DNA from: a virus
Taxonomy: Duplodnaviria; Heunggongvirae; Uroviricota; Caudoviricetes
Strand: one strand, 5' to 3'
DNA: 7,873 nt
IMG/VR virus record: IMGVR_UViG_2671180770_000001
Location: 1 to 7,873 of that record
The notes under the pieces were generated by a model, which was not told the DNA's origin, made no database searches, and saw only the letters and a program-made list of their open reading frames with translations. The position numbers and the translations under genes were made by a program. Shown here in pieces: positions 1 to 7,873 of the stretch. Each line of letters starts with the position of its first letter. Position 1 is the stretch's first letter.

Positions 1-100
1 CCCCATCCGCCAGCACCGACATGATTCTGCTGGTGAAATCCACCATCACCACCAGAAACAGCAGGAGTGCAGCCACAGCCAGGCGCAGTTTTACCGTCAC
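1..100 (-). CDS. Partial small hydrophobic (predicted membrane) protein; N-terminal 33 codons only, continues beyond the window start
   Basis: GTG at 100..98 overlaps the TGA stop of the upstream TerB-like gene (GTGA), with GGAG about 8 nt upstream. The frame stays open to position 1 and reads MTVKLRLAVAALLLFLVVMVDFTSRIMSVLADG, with a hydrophobic stretch of about 20 residues. Not in the ORF track because it is truncated. Confidence 0.4.
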   Translation of the reverse strand, partial: MTVKLRLAVAALLLFLVVMVDFTSRIMSVLADG

Positions 101-528
101 TGGTGATTCTCCAGACGAAGACCCAGAACACCGGCAATCTCTTCCAGCACCTTGCGCTCTTCCGGCTCAATTTCGCCGTCTGCCTCCGCAATGGCCACCG
201 CCACATCCAGCACATCTTCCGCTTCACGCGTATCGTGTTTCACATCTTCAATTTCACGCAATGCCGCTCGACGACCAATTTTAAAGTTCGTATCCAGCTG
301 ACCGATAATGGTTGCGCTAATCGCATTAATTTCTGACGTAAACGCGGACAACGCAGGCTGGTTACGCAAGACCTGCTCGATCTTCGCTTTCTCTGAAGCC
401 TCACATTCACCATCTGCATAGGCCACCAGATAGGCAGCATTAATAACCGCCTGTGCCAGATCACGTTTCTCAAACTTTTTAATTTCCACTGCCGCTCGGC
501 GGGCTTTTTTACCAAAAATACCAAACAT
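97..528 (-). CDS. TerB-family (tellurite-resistance TerB-like fold) protein, 143 aa
   Basis: The track ORF 97..600 is trimmed to the internal ATG at 528, which has AAAGGAA 8 nt upstream. The protein carries two copies of the acidic ADG-x5-E-x3-(L/I) motif (AYADGECEASEKAKIEQVL and AEADGEIEPEERKVLEEIAGVLGL) that I associate with the TerB / DjlA N-terminal fold. Family assignment is from motif recognition, not a search. Confidence 0.75.
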   Translation of the reverse strand: MFGIFGKKARRAAVEIKKFEKRDLAQAVINAAYLVAYADGECEASEKAKIEQVLRNQPALSAFTSEINAISATIIGQLDTNFKIGRRAALREIEDVKHDTREAEDVLDVAVAIAEADGEIEPEERKVLEEIAGVLGLRLENHQ

Positions 529-658
529 CGTGACGTTCCTTTGGGTGGGTGAGCCAACGCCCGGGAGCGATCTGCCCACAGAGAAAGTCACACTGACCAC
601 TCCGTAAGCTCACCCCCGAAAGGCTCTGTGGTTGATATGCGCCGGGCGTGGCGCAGAT

Positions 659-685
659 ACAAAAAAAGCCCGCCGAAGCGAGCCT
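659..685 (-). terminator. Rho-independent terminator immediately downstream of the tRNA cluster
   Basis: On the minus-sense RNA: GCUCGC-UUCG-GCGGGC hairpin (6 bp including one G.U, UUCG tetraloop) followed by UUUUUUUGU (plus strand 659..667 is acaaaaaaa). Confidence 0.55.
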
Positions 686-696
686 GATAATAAATC

Positions 697-771
697 TGGA
701 GCGGGTAGCGGGAATCGAACCCGCATCATCAGCCTGGAAGGCTGAGGTAATAGCCATTATACGGTACCCGC
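697..771 (-). tRNA. tRNA-Gly, anticodon UCC
   Basis: Reverse complement folds as a cloverleaf: perfect 7-bp acceptor stem GCGGGTA/TACCCGC, anticodon arm TCAGC-CTTCCAG-GCTGA, T arm GCGGG-TTCGATT-CCCGC, encoded CCA. Resembles the E. coli glyT type. Confidence 0.85.
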
Positions 772-774
772 ATA

Positions 775-850
775 TGGTGCCGGCTACCGGAATCGAACTG
801 GCGACCTGATGATTACAAGTCAGTTGCTCTACCATTGGAGCTAAACCAGC
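775..850 (-). tRNA. tRNA-Thr-like, anticodon UGU; degenerate stems, possibly impaired
   Basis: Reverse complement GCTGGTTTAGCTCCAATGGTAGAGCAACTGACTTGTAATCATCAGGTCGCCAGTTCGATTCCGGTAGCCGGCACCA. D arm GCTC/GAGC, anticodon loop CTTGTAA, T loop TTCGATT, discriminator A and CCA fit a thrU-like tRNA. The acceptor stem has two G.U pairs, the anticodon stem two mismatches and the T stem one mismatch. Confidence 0.6.
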
Positions 851-855
851 ATGTT

Positions 856-930
856 TGGCGGGACAGCGTGGACTCGAACCACGATAAGAAGGTTAACAGC
901 CTTCCGTAATGACCTTTATACGACTGACCC
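856..930 (-). tRNA. tRNA-Asn-like, anticodon GUU
   Basis: Reverse complement GGGTCAGTCGTATAAAGGTCATTACGGAAGGCTGTTAACCTTCTTATCGTGGTTCGAGTCCACGCTGTCCCGCCA. Perfect anticodon stem GAAGG/CCTTC with loop CTGTTAA, perfect T arm CGTGG-TTCGAGT-CCACG, encoded CCA. One U.U mismatch in the acceptor stem. Unlike the host-type tRNA-Asn I remember, so probably phage-type. Confidence 0.7.
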
Positions 931-984
931 AAATAAAAAAAGCCACCGTTGCAACTTAAGAGTCACTAACGGCAGCTTACATCT

Positions 985-1497
985 TTAAACGGTATGATAT
1001 TTCATTCTGGCTGCCTCAAAAGCCGCAGCGGCAAGTTCGGCAGTGTCATGGTATCCAAGGTTAATACACTTTCCAGACGCATTAATTCTTGCTCTCCATT
1101 TCCCGTACTTAGCATCCCAAGACACGCCACGGTATCCAGATTTATTATTCTTCTGAATTTTCCTGTTTTGCATATTTTCGGAATGAGTGACAAGACGAAG
1201 ATTTGATATCCGGTTATCTGTTCTTACCCTGTTGATGTGATCAATAAAACCATCTGGCATGGTGCCATAAACAATCAACCATGCCAGTCTGTGAGCAGGG
1301 TATGCTTTACCATTAATCATAATCATTAAATACCCATCAGAATTTATTGATGAGCATTTCTTGAAAGCAAAACGAGAGTTCCATGTCAAAGTGGTCCTCT
1401 CTCTCCCCTGCCTCCACCTCCAGTGAAAGTCGCCTGATGATGGATTGTAATCAACAACAGAAAGCACCATTTCTGGCGTTAATTTTATTTCTTTCAT
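985..1497 (-). CDS. HNH homing endonuclease with C-terminal AP2-like DNA-binding domain, 170 aa
   Basis: ATG at 1497 with AAGG upstream, stop TAA at 985..987. HNH-type motif region GFIDHINRVRTDNRISNLRLVTHSENMQNR; AP2-like segment GYRGVSWDAKYGKWRARINASGKCINLGYHDTAELAAAAFEAARMKYH. Codon usage is visibly AT-richer than the neighbouring genes. Confidence 0.8.
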   Translation of the reverse strand: MKEIKLTPEMVLSVVDYNPSSGDFHWRWRQGRERTTLTWNSRFAFKKCSSINSDGYLMIMINGKAYPAHRLAWLIVYGTMPDGFIDHINRVRTDNRISNLRLVTHSENMQNRKIQKNNKSGYRGVSWDAKYGKWRARINASGKCINLGYHDTAELAAAAFEAARMKYHTV

Positions 1498-1615
1498 CGC
1501 TTTACCTTAGGGATAGAGCCTGTTCGCGTAGATATGACAGCCAAGAGCGGAGCGATGTTTCCACCACCATATCTCAGGCCCATATCACTAAGACTCTTGT
1601 TTTGATTGCACGCGA

Positions 1616-1644
1616 ATGCAAAAAAGCCCACAGGAGGTGGGCTT
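1616..1644 (-). terminator. tR'-like rho-independent terminator of the short late leader transcript
   Basis: Minus-sense AAGCCCAC-CUCCU-GUGGGCUU (8-bp stem) followed by UUUUUGC. It lies about 45 nt downstream of the putative pR' -10 element. Confidence 0.7.
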
Positions 1645-1684
1645 GTGATGGTTGCTGAATGCAAAAGCAGCAGCATATGTGAAT

Positions 1685-1714
1685 ATTATGGCTAAATGGC
1701 TAATTGCATGTCAA
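1685..1714 (-). promoter_or_regulatory. pR'-like late promoter (putative -35 and -10; qut expected to overlap)
   Basis: Minus-sense TTGACA (1714..1709), 18-nt spacer, CATAAT (1690..1685). The -35 lies in the last codons of the Q-like gene and the -10 directly after its stop, the position pR' occupies in lambdoid phages. Confidence 0.45.
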
Positions 1715-2210
1715 GGCTTTTAACAGCAACATGCTTAACTTTCTCAACACGTTTACGCATTTTGAAAGCATTTTGCATTGGTTGGTACAAAACAAATAAT
1801 GACGCTTTCAGGATATCGTCAATTTCGTTTCTACAGGTTGCCAGTGAAGGTTTTCTCCATCCCTCGCCACCGCGTCCACACATCTTGCGTGGCTTTGCAG
1901 TCGCGTGATAGTAGGATGCAATTGCTCTCTTAGATGAACCATGAGCGTAGTAGCTGAGGAGGATGCCAAAGGCTTTCTTGTCAATGTACATGACGGAATC
2001 GACGACCTGAGAAATCAACATTCCATCATCATCATTGCACATTGGTCTTGTCATAACTCTTCCCGGCTCTACGCTCTCCATGAACTTCGCTATTACGCTG
2101 CTCATGCGCTTTTCCAGACGACCTGAATAAACCCATGCGCCCCACAGTTCAAGCCAGCCATTCAGCCAATCGTGCTGTTCTTTGGTGAGGTTTAGTTCTC
2201 TTATGCCCAT
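1692..2210 (-). CDS. Q: Late-gene antitermination protein Q (Q-family, not the lambda Q type), 172 aa
   Basis: ATG at 2210 with AAGGGAG upstream. Sits between ninG and the pR'/tR' pair. N-terminal WLELWGAWV motif resembles the ERWGAWA motif of Q proteins from other lambdoid prophages. Confidence 0.7.
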   Translation of the reverse strand: MGIRELNLTKEQHDWLNGWLELWGAWVYSGRLEKRMSSVIAKFMESVEPGRVMTRPMCNDDDGMLISQVVDSVMYIDKKAFGILLSYYAHGSSKRAIASYYHATAKPRKMCGRGGEGWRKPSLATCRNEIDDILKASLFVLYQPMQNAFKMRKRVEKVKHVAVKSLDMQLAI

Positions 2211-2253
2211 GCGACTTCTCCCTTGTTATCTGGAATGGTTTTTACTGAGAGCG

Positions 2254-2859
2254 TCATGCGGCCTCACTTCTGCTGTTTCGCAGGTCTTTGAGTTTCTGTT
2301 GGTACTCTGCCTTGATGGCCCTGCACTCTTCGACAGTCCAGCGATGGCGGTTATGGTTTGATTCGATTTCGTCTACTGCTTCCTGCCCGATGCGGTTAAT
2401 CAGTTCGACGCGATACGGAACGAGATTTCCGCTTTTGTGCTGGTTGCACACCACGCATTGCTTGTGAATATTGCGTTCATCAAATCGGAGTTGAGGCGCC
2501 GCAGCAGTTGTCCGGTAATGTCCGGCATCCCACTGAGCAGACGTGAGCGTTCCGCACGAGATACATGGTAAGTCGCGGTCTCTTTCTCTGATGAAGGCGT
2601 TTACGGCTTGTTGGGCTTGTTTAATCCAGTAACTGCGGGGCTTTAAGGCGAGTTTTCGAATCTTAATTTTATCTTTCTGTTTCTGCTCCTCTCGTCGTCG
2701 TTTCTTCTCTGCTGTTTTTTCCGCCTTTTCGCGTTCTTTATTTCGTCGTTCGAGCGCTAATTTAGTTCCGTGTTCCGGGCTGCACCACCACTGATTTGAG
2801 AATGCCGGGTGAAACCATTCCTTACAGATTTTGCATTTCCTTCGCGCTGGTTTAGCCAT
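2254..2859 (-). CDS. ninG: NinG (Rap) recombination-associated protein, 201 aa
   Basis: Translation ([39 protein letters not shown]...[30 protein letters not shown]) is nearly identical to lambda NinG as I recall it. GGGGAGG upstream of the ATG; the start overlaps the upstream stop (TAATG). Confidence 0.93.
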
Positions 2860-6271: not shown

Positions 6272-6562
6272 TCATCTTTTAACTCCATATACCGCCAATA
6301 CCCGTTTCATCGCGGCACTCTGGCGACACTCCTTAAAAATCAGGTTCGTGCTCACCTTTCCTTCCCGTTCTTCCCTGGTAGCAAACCGGTAATACACCGT
6401 TCGCCAGACCTTACCATCAATGACAAGGATTCCTGCCCGCGCCATTTTAGCCGCAGCCTGATTTATACTGGTTACGGTTGCGCCTGTTAGCGCGGCAACG
6501 TCCGGCGCACAGAAGCTATTATGCGTCCCCAGGTAATGAATAATTGCCTCTTTGCCCGTCAT
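6272..6562 (-). CDS. ren: Ren (Rex-exclusion escape protein), 96 aa
   Basis: Translation MTGKEAIIHYLGTHNSFCAPDVAALTGATVTSINQAAAKMARAGILVIDGKVWRTVYYRFATREEREGK... is near-identical to lambda Ren as I recall it. ATG overlaps the P stop (ATGA). Confidence 0.9.
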   Translation of the reverse strand: MTGKEAIIHYLGTHNSFCAPDVAALTGATVTSINQAAAKMARAGILVIDGKVWRTVYYRFATREEREGKVSTNLIFKECRQSAAMKRVLAVYGVKR

Positions 6563-7260
6563 ACACTTGCTCCTTTCAGTCCGAACTTAGCTTTAATTTC
6601 TGCGATCTTCGCCAGAGCCTGAACATGATTTAGAGGTCTGCCGCCCATGACAGGAAGTTGTTTTACTGGTTCAGGAATCACCTCACCACGGTTAATTCTC
6701 GCAGTCATATGGACAAGCTCATCTGCGGCCTTGCGCCGTAATTCCGCGTCAGTCAGCGCATTGGCCCGCATGTTCTGGTACAGGTTGGTAACCAGCCAGT
6801 AGTGCGCGTTCGATTTCCACGGATAAGACTCTGCATCCGGATACAGGCCTCGCTTCCGGCAATACTCGTAAACCATATCAACCAGCTCGCTGACGTTTGG
6901 CAGTCCGGCGATAACGGATGCTTCTTCCCGGCACCATGCAACAAACTGCCCGGGTGATGGAAGAAATGGTCGATTCTGCCGACGGGCTACGCGCATTCCT
7001 GCGTTAACCTGTTCCATCGAGGTGATCCCGTTTTCCCGGAAAGCCAGAACCCACTGGCGGCGGATTTCATTCAGTTCGTTCTGGTCCCGGTTAGCCAGAC
7101 TCGCCGGGAAAGTTGCCAGTAACTGGCTGAACACACCGTTGATGATCTGCGCTACCTGTTGTACCTGCGGCTTTTCGTCGTACTGTTCCGGCATGTTGTT
7201 GGTGATCCGACGCATCTGCTCACGGTCAAAGTTAACCATCTGTGCGGCGATGTTTTTCAT
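6559..7260 (-). CDS. P: Replication protein P (DnaB helicase loader), 233 aa
   Basis: Translation MKNIAAQMVNFDREQMRRITNNMPEQYDEKPQVQQVAQIINGVFSQLLATFPASLANRDQNE... is near-identical to lambda P. ATG overlaps the O stop (ATGA). Confidence 0.95.
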   Translation of the reverse strand: MKNIAAQMVNFDREQMRRITNNMPEQYDEKPQVQQVAQIINGVFSQLLATFPASLANRDQNELNEIRRQWVLAFRENGITSMEQVNAGMRVARRQNRPFLPSPGQFVAWCREEASVIAGLPNVSELVDMVYEYCRKRGLYPDAESYPWKSNAHYWLVTNLYQNMRANALTDAELRRKAADELVHMTARINRGEVIPEPVKQLPVMGGRPLNHVQALAKIAEIKAKFGLKGASV

Positions 7261-7873
7261 AAATCCACCCCGTAAATCCAGTCAGTGTTTGTCAGGTCGA
7301 GTTTTGGTTTTCCAGCTGTCACGCCAGCCTGTTGCTTGTTACGGTTGATTTCGAGTTGGGTCCACTTGTCGCGGAGTTTGGCCGGACTTAGCACGTTACC
7401 GGACCAGAAGTTGTCCTGGCATGCCCAGCAGAACAGCACGCACATGTCGCGGTGGTTACGTCCGTCACGTTCACGCATCAGGCGGATATCGTTAGCCCAC
7501 CCTGCAAAATTCGGTTTTCTGGCTGATGGTGCGATGGTCTTCACCATGTCAAACATCCACTCTGCGGCGGTCAGGTCTTCTGCTGTTCCCCACTTGCTGC
7601 CGCTCTGAATTGCAGCATCCGGTTTAACCACAGAAAGATCGTTTTCTGGCTGGTCAGAGGATTCGCCAGAATTCTCGGACGAATAATCTTTTCTTTTTTC
7701 TTTTGTAATAGTGTCTTTTGTGTCCCCCTGTTTTGAGGGATAGCAATCCCCTAATTTGAGGGATGTTTTATCCCTCGTTTTAGGGGGGGTTCCCTCGTTT
7801 TGAGGGATGTCCCTCATTTTAGGGGAACCTCCCTCGTTTTGAGGGATGCACCATTCTGAGATGTTTTTATTTG
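7257..7873 (-). CDS. O: Replication initiator O, C-terminal ~205 codons; N-terminus lies beyond the window end
   Basis: The frame is open from 7873 down to the TGA at 7257..7259. Translation ...NKNISEWCIPQNEGGSPKMRDIPQNEGTPPKTRDKTSLKLGDCYPSKQGDTKDTITKEKRKDYSSENSGESSDQPENDLSVVKPD...TNTDWIYGVDL matches lambda O and contains the ori-encoded segment. Confidence 0.93.
   Translation of the reverse strand, partial: NKNISEWCIPQNEGGSPKMRDIPQNEGTPPKTRDKTSLKLGDCYPSKQGDTKDTITKEKRKDYSSENSGESSDQPENDLSVVKPDAAIQSGSKWGTAEDLTAAEWMFDMVKTIAPSARKPNFAGWANDIRLMRERDGRNHRDMCVLFCWACQDNFWSGNVLSPAKLRDKWTQLEINRNKQQAGVTAGKPKLDLTNTDWIYGVDL
7680..7846. repeat. ori-lambda-type replication origin: six iterons plus adjacent AT-rich region, inside the O reading frame
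   Basis: Six copies of the palindromic iteron TCCCTC-n4/5-GAGGGA at 7723..7740, 7747..7763, 7771..7787, 7791..7807, 7810..7826 and 7830..7846, spaced 19 to 24 bp. Flanked by the AT-rich stretch cgaataatcttttcttttttcttttgtaatagtgtcttttg (7680..7720). Confidence 0.85.

Follow-up and report, generated by a model that had tools for sequence, protein, structure and literature searches.

The tciA-tciB accessory module and its conserved leader in the late operon of an Escherichia coli lambdoid prophage

The window analysed here is a stretch of 7,873 nucleotides of tailed-phage DNA (IMG/VR record IMGVR_UViG_2671180770_000001). The following features were located in it, all on the minus strand.

1..100, minus strand: 5' part of tciB (33 of 55 codons), DUF3927, with a GTG start at 100..98
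97..528, minus strand: tciA, encoding a 143-aa TerB-family protein, with its ATG at 528
529..655, minus strand: conserved 5' leader RNA of about 130 nt, structured as judged by covariation and conservation
659..685, minus strand: intrinsic-terminator-like hairpin and U-run, AGGCUCGC-UUCG-GCGGGCUU
697-771, minus strand: tRNA-Gly(UCC), in the tRNA cluster 697..930
778-850, minus strand: tRNA-Thr(UGU), missed by ARAGORN and found with Rfam
856-930, minus strand: tRNA-Asn(GUU), in the tRNA cluster 697..930
931..979, minus strand: homologue, by sequence match, of the tR' terminator/pause element of phage 21
985..1497, minus strand: endonuclease gene with HNH_3 (E=2e-18) and AP2 (E=2e-8) matches in Pfam
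1644..1624, minus strand: first terminator just after Q, from the terminator scan
1714..1685, minus strand: candidate late promoter pR', TTGACA-N18-CATAAT, with 11 of 12 hexamer matches
1692..2210, minus strand: late antiterminator Q, 172 aa (Pfam Phage_antitermQ PF06530, E=1e-25)

The tciA and tciB genes form an accessory module of tailed phages; in this window they belong to the late operon of a lambdoid prophage of E. coli. In relatives the gene order is Q, tRNAs, tciAB, NanS-p esterase, holin, endolysin and Rz; the lysis cassette is located beyond the window and its order was taken from these relatives. This order agrees with the initial annotation, which had placed the pair in the cargo slot between Q and the lysis genes, the position of stx in Stx phages, and had rightly kept it apart from the lambda core functions. 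The candidate pR' and the first terminator, assigned by consensus match only, are placed like pR' and tR' of phage 21. Window positions 773-979/980 are about 91-92% identical to phages 21 and Sf6, and this region covers the annotated terminator and a sigma-dependent pause element. The HNH_3/AP2 gene, an insertion downstream of Q and ahead of the tRNA genes, probably encodes a homing endonuclease; it is absent at this place from phage 21 and JLK-2012.

With ARAGORN and Rfam combined, the upstream tRNA genes number three and not two, and phage JLK-2012 is annotated alike. Genes for tRNAs within 1.5 kb on the same strand were also observed at lambdoid, P1/P7/D6, Erwinia jumbo phage and Pseudomonas ZY21 loci, a linkage that may reflect either a functional link or a shared placement in cargo regions. 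The terminator reported earlier between the tRNAs and the pair was located by the scan as a hairpin at 685..666 with a T-run to 659, and marks the 5' edge of the leader/tciAB module. It is kept in other lineages with compensating sequence changes, and a hairpin and T-run stand directly upstream in 79 of 122 distinct leaders.

Stx phages carry stxAB in the same slot (Q, pR'/tR', tRNAs, cargo, NanS-p esterase, holin, endolysin, Rz), and the Sakai prophage Sp12 has exactly this layout with tciAB replacing stx. The products are unrelated, however, and tciAB brings its own terminator and leader.

In a profile search the 143-aa product of tciA matched Pfam TerB PF05099 (E=4.2e-16, 59.7 bits with a cut-off of 24.4), residues 26-138 aligning with profile positions 2-109 of 118, as well as phrog_632 (E=8e-69). 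Two acidic D-G-x5-E motifs are present, YADGECEASEKAK at residues 37-49 and EADGEIEPEERK at residues 115-126, which we take to be the proposed metal site of the TerB family. Across sets of 10 and 29 homologues, residues D39, G40, E46, D117, G118 and E124 are unchanged or conserved to at least 90%, and the N-terminus carries a conserved basic MFGxFKKK. The solved TerB structure 2JXU gave a full-length match (E=6e-8, residues 15-137). For the AF2 model (pLDDT 86.8) the best Foldseek matches were the TerB-like 2H5N (TM 0.55-0.64, probability 1.00) and 2OU3; as the E-values are weak (0.014 at best), the fold match backs the TerB assignment and is alone not decisive. The TerB-type assignment made at the outset thus stands on the PF05099 score, the homology with 2JXU and both motifs: TciA is a complete stand-alone TerB-fold protein, predicted to be cytoplasmic and all-helical.

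The 33 tciB codons inside the window translate to VTVKLRLAVAALLLFLVVMVDFTSRIMSVLADG. This partial ORF scored 36.7 bits with Pfam DUF3927 (PF13064, cut-off 25) and a full-length relative 58.9 bits, while phrog_1470 was matched with E=2e-28. The frame ends after 55 aa in relatives (L002, 7933-8100; full length also read in L008), and two hydrophobic stretches with K/R flanking both ends can be read off the sequence of the full-length relative. TciB is predicted to be a small inner-membrane protein, which bears out the earlier reading of a hydrophobic frame running past the window edge. No holin family was matched in Pfam, DUF3927 being the only hit at E up to 1. Compared with phage Pollock, TciB is better conserved than TciA (about 53% identity by hand count versus 27%).

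The tciA stop TGA (99..97) overlaps the tciB GTG (100..98) as GTGA, with a GGAG at 112..109; this arrangement, noted before, is read directly from the sequence. A DUF3927 ORF overlapping tciA by 4 nt or 1 nt was found at 166 of 171 loci. An HMM-positive DUF3927 partner accompanies 243 of 276 TciA genes, and among the HMM-negative remainder most overlap with a short hydrophobic ORF or have a DUF3927 called by Pfam. Judged from these overlaps, tciA and tciB appear coupled in translation at some 90% or more of the 276 loci. A membrane partner is the rule for TerB proteins of the TciA type: in Vibrio phage MS02, which lacks TciB, a TciA-like TerB follows TerD and TerC, and in Pseudomonas phage AF an overlapping one-TM ORF takes the place of tciB. 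Against this, L222-L225 have tciA and no tciB. Fusions of TciA and TciB (P0007, P0064, L063) were considered as Rosetta-stone evidence and set aside, as they look like frameshift or assembly products.

The pair was already known as the catalogued and uncharacterised tciA/tciB module. It was named in phage P1 in 2004 and has earlier entries as PHROG 632 and 1470, as Pfam DUF3927 and in the annotation of phage JLK-2012; the literature yielded no functional study of the pair and no experiment with any TciA or TciB protein. The initial annotation had allowed for a conserved, characterised component of the lysis cassette: the pair is conserved and named, but not characterised. It was present in 805 of 5,426 complete E. 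coli genomes (15%), mostly STEC/EHEC, with a median of four copies and up to eight. The module is also carried by strictly lytic phages, the N4-like Pollock and Erwinia jumbo phages, and by Pseudomonas Nickievirus. A scan of viral contigs with the TciA alignment returned near-identical E. coli prophages only, and the diversity came from other queries. Few phage accessory modules without a function are as common as tciAB. When TciA and TciB were scanned with PADLOC and NCBIfam, nothing past TerB/DjlA-like similarity emerged; in PADLOC-DB 2.0, TciA had only a 14.7-bit partial match to PDC-S48 and TciB had no match.

In the tciA-tciB-tciC locus of P1, and also in P7 and D6, a TerB-like gene is likewise followed by an overlapping DUF3927 gene, and tRNA-Asn and tRNA-Thr genes lie upstream on the same strand. 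P1 differs in that its TciA is only 41% identical to that of the window and in that tciC follows tciB, whereas the relatives of the window's pair have no TciC homologue (the only ORF overlapping the tciB stop in L002 is 31 aa long, non-hydrophobic and unlike P1 TciC). In addition, P1 tciAB is located inside the C1-repressed ban operon and not in a Q-dependent late operon as proposed here, and the structured leader is absent (no R1 match in L003).

The resemblance to TerB of the terZABCDE operons for tellurite, phage and colicin resistance (Klebsiella TerB, PDB 2JXU) extends over full-length homology, the same acidic motifs and the helical TerB-like fold, and there too TerB is paired with a membrane protein. 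This partner is the multi-pass TerC in the ter operon and the 55-aa TciB here, and terC, terD/E/Z and terA were found neither in the window nor in the regions flanking the pair in relatives. Only in Vibrio N4-like phages is a TciA-like TerB combined with TerC and TerD.

A scan for sigma-70 consensus sites found no promoter-like site between the terminator and tciA. Of the expression control of its own that had been suggested for the pair, one part held, since the terminator and the conserved leader travel with the module, and the other did not, a sigma-70-like promoter being absent in the scan. Late, Q-dependent expression of tciAB fits best, which makes a use in the lytic cycle likelier than lysogenic conversion. 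Transcripts of P1 tciA/B have been reported in lytic infection. The location and timing of the module vary, being late in lambdoids, in the early/middle region in Pollock and in the ban operon in P1; because of these differences a general function in host physiology fits, and lysis timing specifically does not.

In the model proposed here, tciAB would depend for its transcription on Q-modified polymerase alone, which would read through from pR' as it does for stx in Stx phages, and its products would be made late in lytic growth. The leader would gate the translation of tciA, as its CCUUU is able to pair with the AAAGG ribosome-binding site, and TciB would be made through translational coupling. 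By analogy with TerC partnering TerB in ter operons, TciB may anchor TciA at the inner membrane. The complex might then sense or buffer ion or membrane stress, so that the infected cell stays energised until the holin fires and is protected from premature collapse via superinfecting phages, pore-forming colicins and host suicide systems. The identity and architecture of the module are firm. Its membrane-protecting function is a guess by analogy with the phenotypes of the family, and towards the whole model, with late-operon, leader-gated tciAB, TciB anchoring and membrane protection, we lean only slightly. A role for phage-borne Ter components in competing with superinfecting phages was proposed by Iyer et al. 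(2021). P1 tciA/B/C were non-essential in a CRISPRi screen, so any benefit would be conditional.

A function in the prophage state is considered unlikely. The pair would then be a lysogenic-conversion or defence module for superinfection exclusion, abortive infection or tellurite/colicin resistance, comparable to the IncHI2 ter operon, and the first two of these, together with lysogenic conversion, had been put forward by the initial annotation. Such a role has been speculated on in gene names and literature; the module lies in a cargo hotspot beside methyltransferases, restriction-modification genes and ParE/HTH pairs, EHEC genomes retain up to eight copies, and the gene of Paracoccus phage Pyei1 is on the same strand as a CI-like repressor. 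The presence of the same module in obligately lytic N4-like and jumbo phages disfavours it, as do the C1-repressed ban operon of P1 and the PADLOC scan, in which the 14.7-bit partial match was the only one and is not credible. At the locus itself, the sigma-70 scan gave no promoter-like site and the leader is predicted to sequester the ribosome-binding site. Moreover, TerB in ter operons does not act alone and requires terC/D/E, all of which are absent nearby.

Somewhat less probable again is an accessory role in lysis timing, with TciB an antiholin- or holin-like regulator and TciA a cytoplasmic sensor. Several lambdoid lineages, independent of one another and differing in holin family, have the pair as the last genes before the holin: in L220/L221, 17 nt separate the end of tciB from a Phage_holin_3_1 gene, in phage pPE4 the pair directly precedes two holins, and L202-L207 are placed likewise. 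TciB is moreover of pinholin size. In P1, Pollock and the Erwinia jumbo phages, however, the pair lies away from the lysis genes, and a 1.85-kb esterase gene and an sRNA gene often separate it from the holin. TciB matches no Pfam holin family and a complete S/R/Rz set exists without it. With a separate class II or other holin downstream in all relatives, the suggestion that the partner is itself an unusual holin found no support.

The leader upstream of tciA comprises the following elements.

654-650/643-639, minus strand: hairpin P1
631-624/583-576, minus strand: helix a
617-608/554-544, minus strand: helix b
604-597/570-562, minus strand: helix e
596-594/590-588, minus strand: hairpin c
623-619 with 542-538, minus strand: predicted pairing of the anti-SD CCUUU with the SD AAAGG

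Helix a crosses helices b and e, which implies a pseudoknot or two alternative folds. RNAalifold recovered 8 pairs only from the raw MAFFT alignment, and the single-sequence MFE fold differs from the covariation model and is of modest stability (z=-2.7); for this reason the model was assembled manually and assessed by counting pairs. In three covariation tests the paired cells amounted to 84.5%, 87.9% and 86.4%, compared with 38-51% in slid-partner controls, which retain relatedness, and both-side changes were found in 16, 26 and 26 of 39 pairs. Alignments A4 and A6 were made with a model without helices b, e and the anti-SD. Pairing as high as observed was reached in 0 of 500 shuffles, a control that can be beaten by relatedness alone. 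Helices are also swapped whole, helix b reading GAGCCAAUC/GGUUGGCUC in L222 and helix a CGUAGAG/CUCUACG in a jumbo phage, and in one case (L214) the anti-SD/SD pair shows the compensatory change CCUAU/AUAGG.

The leader is conserved regardless of the upstream sequence, its position is constant relative to the start codon, and it is more conserved than the tciA coding sequence, with 69-82% identity where TciA is down to 39-42% amino-acid identity. A lytic jumbo phage, which stands apart from the lambdoid mosaic, has it as well. Rfam 15 returned tRNAs only for window positions 1-2300 (E up to 0.1), weak terminator-type matches only for 515-700 (E up to 10), and nothing for the leaders of L008, L200, L175 and L006.

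In phage late operons the leader precedes, besides tciA, at least 10 unrelated accessory genes; these include KilA-N, Rha, antirepressor and glycosyltransferase genes and several unknown genes. A TerB-specific element of the metal-riboswitch type was rejected, as 35 of the 80 leaders scanned stand in front of other genes. Identity with a known prophage sRNA was likewise rejected, since STnc100/PasD and PasA/PasC map elsewhere in the region. These Hfq-binding sRNAs of EHEC/EPEC lambdoid prophages are non-coding RNAs of the same Q-to-lysis region; in Sakai, STnc100 immediately follows tciB, and TerB is listed in the Pas preprint among the conserved neighbours of PasA/PasC. They are, however, trans-acting and encoded on both sides of the esterase gene, downstream of tciB, whereas the leader is a cis element upstream of tciA and is unmatched by their Rfam models. 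With fourU and ROSE thermometers and translational riboswitches the leader shares, as predicted here, a U-rich anti-SD pairing with the AAAGG ribosome-binding site in a conserved fold. It differs from them in its much greater size and complexity (five helices, and either a pseudoknot or an alternative fold) and in fronting many unrelated phage cargo genes.

The leader may belong to a class of structured cis-regulatory RNA not described before and serve enterobacterial phages as a portable 'cargo leader', with tciAB as its commonest client, a reading to which we give nearly even chances. It would gate the translation of accessory genes in late operons by switching between the pseudoknotted fold and the helix that sequesters the ribosome-binding site, on a signal that might be temperature, a metabolite or ion, or some factor of the phage or the host. 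It is very improbable that the segment is no functional RNA but a DNA-level 'boundary sequence' kept via mosaic recombination, or simply young sequence: the copies are drawn mostly from enterobacterial prophages of close kinship, shared ancestry alone is enough to outdo the shuffles, and the MFE fold and RNAalifold agree poorly with the model, but the identity of the leader exceeds that of TciA, the paired cells (84-88%) exceed those of the slid controls, whole helices are replaced by other complementary sequences in L222 and the jumbo phage, and the latter lies outside the lambdoid mosaic.

As a catalogued module tciAB is ordinary; the noteworthy part is the conserved leader without an Rfam 15 match, which matters more than the pair itself. 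The pair is common to temperate, N4-like and jumbo phages and sits in the stx slot of toxin phages, and its placement in the lytic programme points experiments to membrane potential, lysis timing and superinfection in late infection. If the leader is real, cargo genes of late operons would carry a common, mobile translational control element, which would give a handle on how morons stay silent or timed and a marker for prophage cargo genes.

The window is from an E. coli lambdoid prophage and covers its early-right and late-control region, with every gene on the minus strand:

7257-7817, minus, replication gene O
6559-7260, minus, replication gene P
minus, NinB and Dam genes
minus, ORF6N/P22AR_C and KilAC antirepressor-like genes
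2254-2859, minus, NinG
1692-2210, minus, Q (PF06530)
1714..1685, minus, promoter-like site TTGACA-N18-CATAAT (promoter scan)
1644..1624, minus, first terminator (terminator scan)
985-1497, minus, HNH_3+AP2 endonuclease gene
856-930, minus, tRNA-Asn
778-850, minus, tRNA-Thr(UGU) (Rfam tRNA model, 49 bits; annotated in related phages)
697-771, minus, tRNA-Gly
685..666, minus, second terminator (terminator scan)
529-685, minus, structured leader RNA of about 130 nt with its upstream terminator hairpin
97..528, minus, tciA

ARAGORN predicted two tRNAs, missing tRNA-Thr, versus three with the Rfam model. At 931-979 the sequence shows homology to phage 21 over its tR' and pause region. The HNH_3+AP2 gene, probably a homing endonuclease, is an insertion that separates the Q/pR' region from this phage-21-like tR'/tRNA block; it is present in strain UTME-3 and absent from the corresponding site in phage 21 and JLK-2012. 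Two late-control segments stand in series, a pR'-like promoter with terminator (1624-1714) just past Q and the phage-21-like terminator/pause segment (931-979) past the HNH gene, which suggests a mosaic junction.

The 143-aa product of tciA had been read as a TerB-family protein, and profile search bore this out (Pfam TerB, 59.7 bits, cut-off 24.4). TciA can be aligned over its full length with the solved Klebsiella TerB (2JXU, E=6e-8). An AlphaFold model built with 29 homologues as input is all-helical (mean pLDDT 86.8), its top PDB matches being the TerB-like structures 2H5N (TM 0.55-0.64) and 2OU3. Both acidic motifs are conserved, with D39, G40, E46, D117, G118 and E124 invariant or nearly so. 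The tciA stop overlaps a GTG start (GTGA, with GGAG just upstream), as initially annotated, and the hydrophobic partner gene running off the window edge is tciB: its 33 codons within the window match DUF3927 (36.7 bits, cut-off 25). In relatives TciB is 55 aa long (MTVKLRLAVAALLLFLVVMVDLTSRIMSVLADGVLVCGIVVLLWPVIKRNSLHNA), with two hydrophobic stretches flanked on both sides by basic residues.

The initial annotation is genuine and reads the sequence correctly, yet what it describes is a known, named and very common module. Window 9-979 matches phage JLK-2012 at 97.4%, where the genes are annotated tciA and tciB, and the proteins form PHROG families 632 (TciA) and 1470 (TciB), class moron/host takeover. 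In a P1 CRISPRi screen tciA, tciB and tciC all scored non-essential. No functional study of tciA or tciB was found in the literature; papers mentioning them merely speculate, and Iyer et al. (2021), describing stand-alone TerB in Erwinia jumbo phages, suggested competition with superinfecting phages.

Of 171 TciA loci, 166 have a DUF3927 ORF that overlaps the stop of tciA, sharing 4 nt or 1 nt with it; the rest are contig ends, a single fusion and one unresolved case. With a small custom HMM, 243 of an enlarged set of 276 loci were positive; among the negatives, most have either a DUF3927 called by Pfam or an overlapping ORF that is small and hydrophobic. TciB is better conserved than TciA, being about 53% identical (manual count) versus 27% in the comparison with the N4-like phage Pollock. 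Pairing of TerB-type proteins with membrane proteins is the rule, and loci lacking TciB usually have another membrane protein as substitute: Vibrio phage MS02 has TerC (with TerD) in its place, Pseudomonas phage AF a one-TM ORF. In the virulent, N4-like MS02 (vB_VpaP-MS02; L198 1-2426) the genes for TerD, a hypothetical protein of 139 aa, TerC and the TciA-like TerB follow one another and amount to a miniature Ter operon. Phage 434 (L005 2606-3593) has TciB without TciA in the same Q-to-esterase slot, between a 247-aa multi-TM protein upstream and another small membrane protein downstream. Pantoea-type loci (L180 3884-8426, L217 1501-2975) continue from a tciA-tciB-like pair into several extra TerB-domain ORFs, forming paralogue arrays. 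L222-L225 (TciA 80% identical) have no tciB; downstream of tciA come toxin-antitoxin genes, CcdA/CcdB or CcdA/PhdYeFM/PIN.

Among 5,426 complete E. coli genomes, 805 have matches to window 1-540, with 2,730 matching places in all (median 4 copies per positive genome, maximum 8), mostly STEC/EHEC, the top match being 99.8% in O145 strains. The Sakai prophage Sp12 runs Q, ileZ-argN-argO, TciA (ECs_2265), TciB (ECs_5733), a NanS-p-type esterase, holin and endolysin, as Stx phages do except that tciAB stands where stx would be, which upholds the proposed cargo slot between Q and lysis. In other E. coli prophages the space from Q to tciAB is taken up by cargo of the methyltransferase, restriction-modification or ParE/HTH kind, and tciAB is followed immediately by the holin. 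An STnc100 sRNA (Rfam RF02076, 101.8 bits; L008 4756-4928, minus strand) lies directly 3' of tciB in Sakai Sp12, before the esterase gene and just past window position 1. According to a 2026 preprint, STnc100 is related to PasD, an Hfq-binding sRNA, and TerB is among the conserved neighbours of PasA/PasC. The pair also lies repeatedly inside or beside same-strand phage tRNA clusters (window 697-930; L003 1616-1769 and 3201-3276; L006 976-4510; L199 1469-1546). tRNA genes occur within 1.5 kb of tciAB in 71 of 91 lambdoid prophage loci; P1, P7 and D6 have tRNA Asn and Thr upstream and Ile(CAU) downstream, and Erwinia jumbo phages as well as Pseudomonas ZY21 show the linkage too. It may reflect function or shared cargo placement.

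About 165 nt from tRNA-Gly to tciA are conserved whichever neighbour lies upstream (tRNA-Gly, tRNA-Arg, methyltransferase or ParE/HTH pair). Leader identity is 69-82% in loci where TciA protein identity is only 39-42%, and even ChrisDB, a lytic jumbo phage of Erwinia, has a recognisable version. Further copies lie at L008 907-1057, L200 3767-3917, L175 7413-7563, L222 2860-2988 (a second copy, preceding a Bro-N gene) and L006 1457-1593. The elements of its proposed fold, with compensatory versions, are:

5' element, terminator-like hairpin with U-run
hairpin P1 and small hairpin c
helix a, CACAGAG/CUCUGUG; CGUAGAG/CUCUACG (jumbo phage), CAGAGAG/CUCUCUG (L180)
helix b, GGGUGAGC/GCUCACCC; GAGCCAAUC/GGUUGGCUC (L222)
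helix e, ACGGAG/CUCC(C)G in the window; CAGAGU/ACUC(C)UG (L174)
anti-SD, CCUUU, complementary to the AAAGG ribosome-binding site and extending helix b; CCUAU/AUAGG (L214)

Pairing in leader alignments; the fold was read from the very sequences tested, which are related
A3, plain MAFFT, 14 distinct rows: 84.5% of cells paired, slid controls 39-50%; 16/39 pairs changed on both sides, slid controls 1-9; 0/500 shuffles reach the observed value
A4, covariance model from P1, a and c only, 47 distinct rows: 87.9%, slid controls 38-51%; 26/39 pairs
A6, A4's model with more loci, 75 distinct rows: 86.4%, slid controls 38-51%; 26/39 pairs

Helices b, e and the anti-SD, outside the A4/A6 training model, were 73-91% paired with both-side changes in 12 of 23 pairs, helix e being weakest. 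Conserved but non-functional DNA is a rival reading of the segment; that a structured leader exists is firm, with helices supported by covariation and a predicted SD-sequestering pairing. Since b and e are both crossed by helix a, the leader would either form a pseudoknot or adopt two alternative folds. The leader matches no Rfam 15 family, and no description of it was found in the literature.

A pattern scan of viral contigs gave 120 stretches, of which 80 loci (L226-L305) were analysed. The leader precedes tciA in 41 and at least ten other gene families in 35, including GT2 glycosyltransferase, Rha, P22-type antirepressor, KilA-N, Bro-N and several unknowns, which rules out a TerB-specific element. 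The non-tciA copies are on the late-operon strand, mostly 0.6-1.2 kb past endolysin/Rz and 2.2-2.9 kb ahead of HNH/terminase genes, and a terminator-like hairpin with T-run lies directly 5' of 79 of 122 distinct leaders. From its clients, positions and hairpins the element acts like a portable leader that serves cargo genes at two late-operon hotspots.

From the 685-666 terminator to tciA, the promoter scan of the minus strand found no sigma-70-like site. The terminator had been taken as a sign of dedicated expression control; this holds in spirit, but control looks post-transcriptional and Q-dependent rather than promoter-based. The pair lies on the late-operon strand downstream of Q and the pR'-like promoter; in P1 it is within the C1-repressed ban operon, and in Pollock its neighbours are early or middle genes. 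A total of 131 phage records have TciA homologues, with obligately lytic carriers among them (Pollock and its relatives, Vibrio N4-like phages, Erwinia jumbo phages, Pseudomonas Nickievirus). Together with the lack of a sigma-70-like site, these contexts point to use in lytic growth rather than in the lysogen. Defence or conversion of the lysogen, for which the stx-like slot could be cited, is a rival reading that sits less easily with them. A regulator of lysis timing, another rival, would suit the holin that comes directly after the pair in some prophages, and has the early or middle position in Pollock to accommodate.

Identity, gene coupling and slot of tciAB are firm. On the lytic reading, the pair would be transcribed late under Q, the leader would gate tciA translation and TciB would anchor TciA to the membrane. 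The ter operon gives resistance to pore-forming colicins and phages; solely from these phenotypes, the TerB-membrane protein pairing and the lytic-phage distribution, TciAB may keep the membrane/ion state of the infected cell intact up to programmed lysis. The interest of the module lies in its being uncharacterised despite being common, and in its leader RNA.
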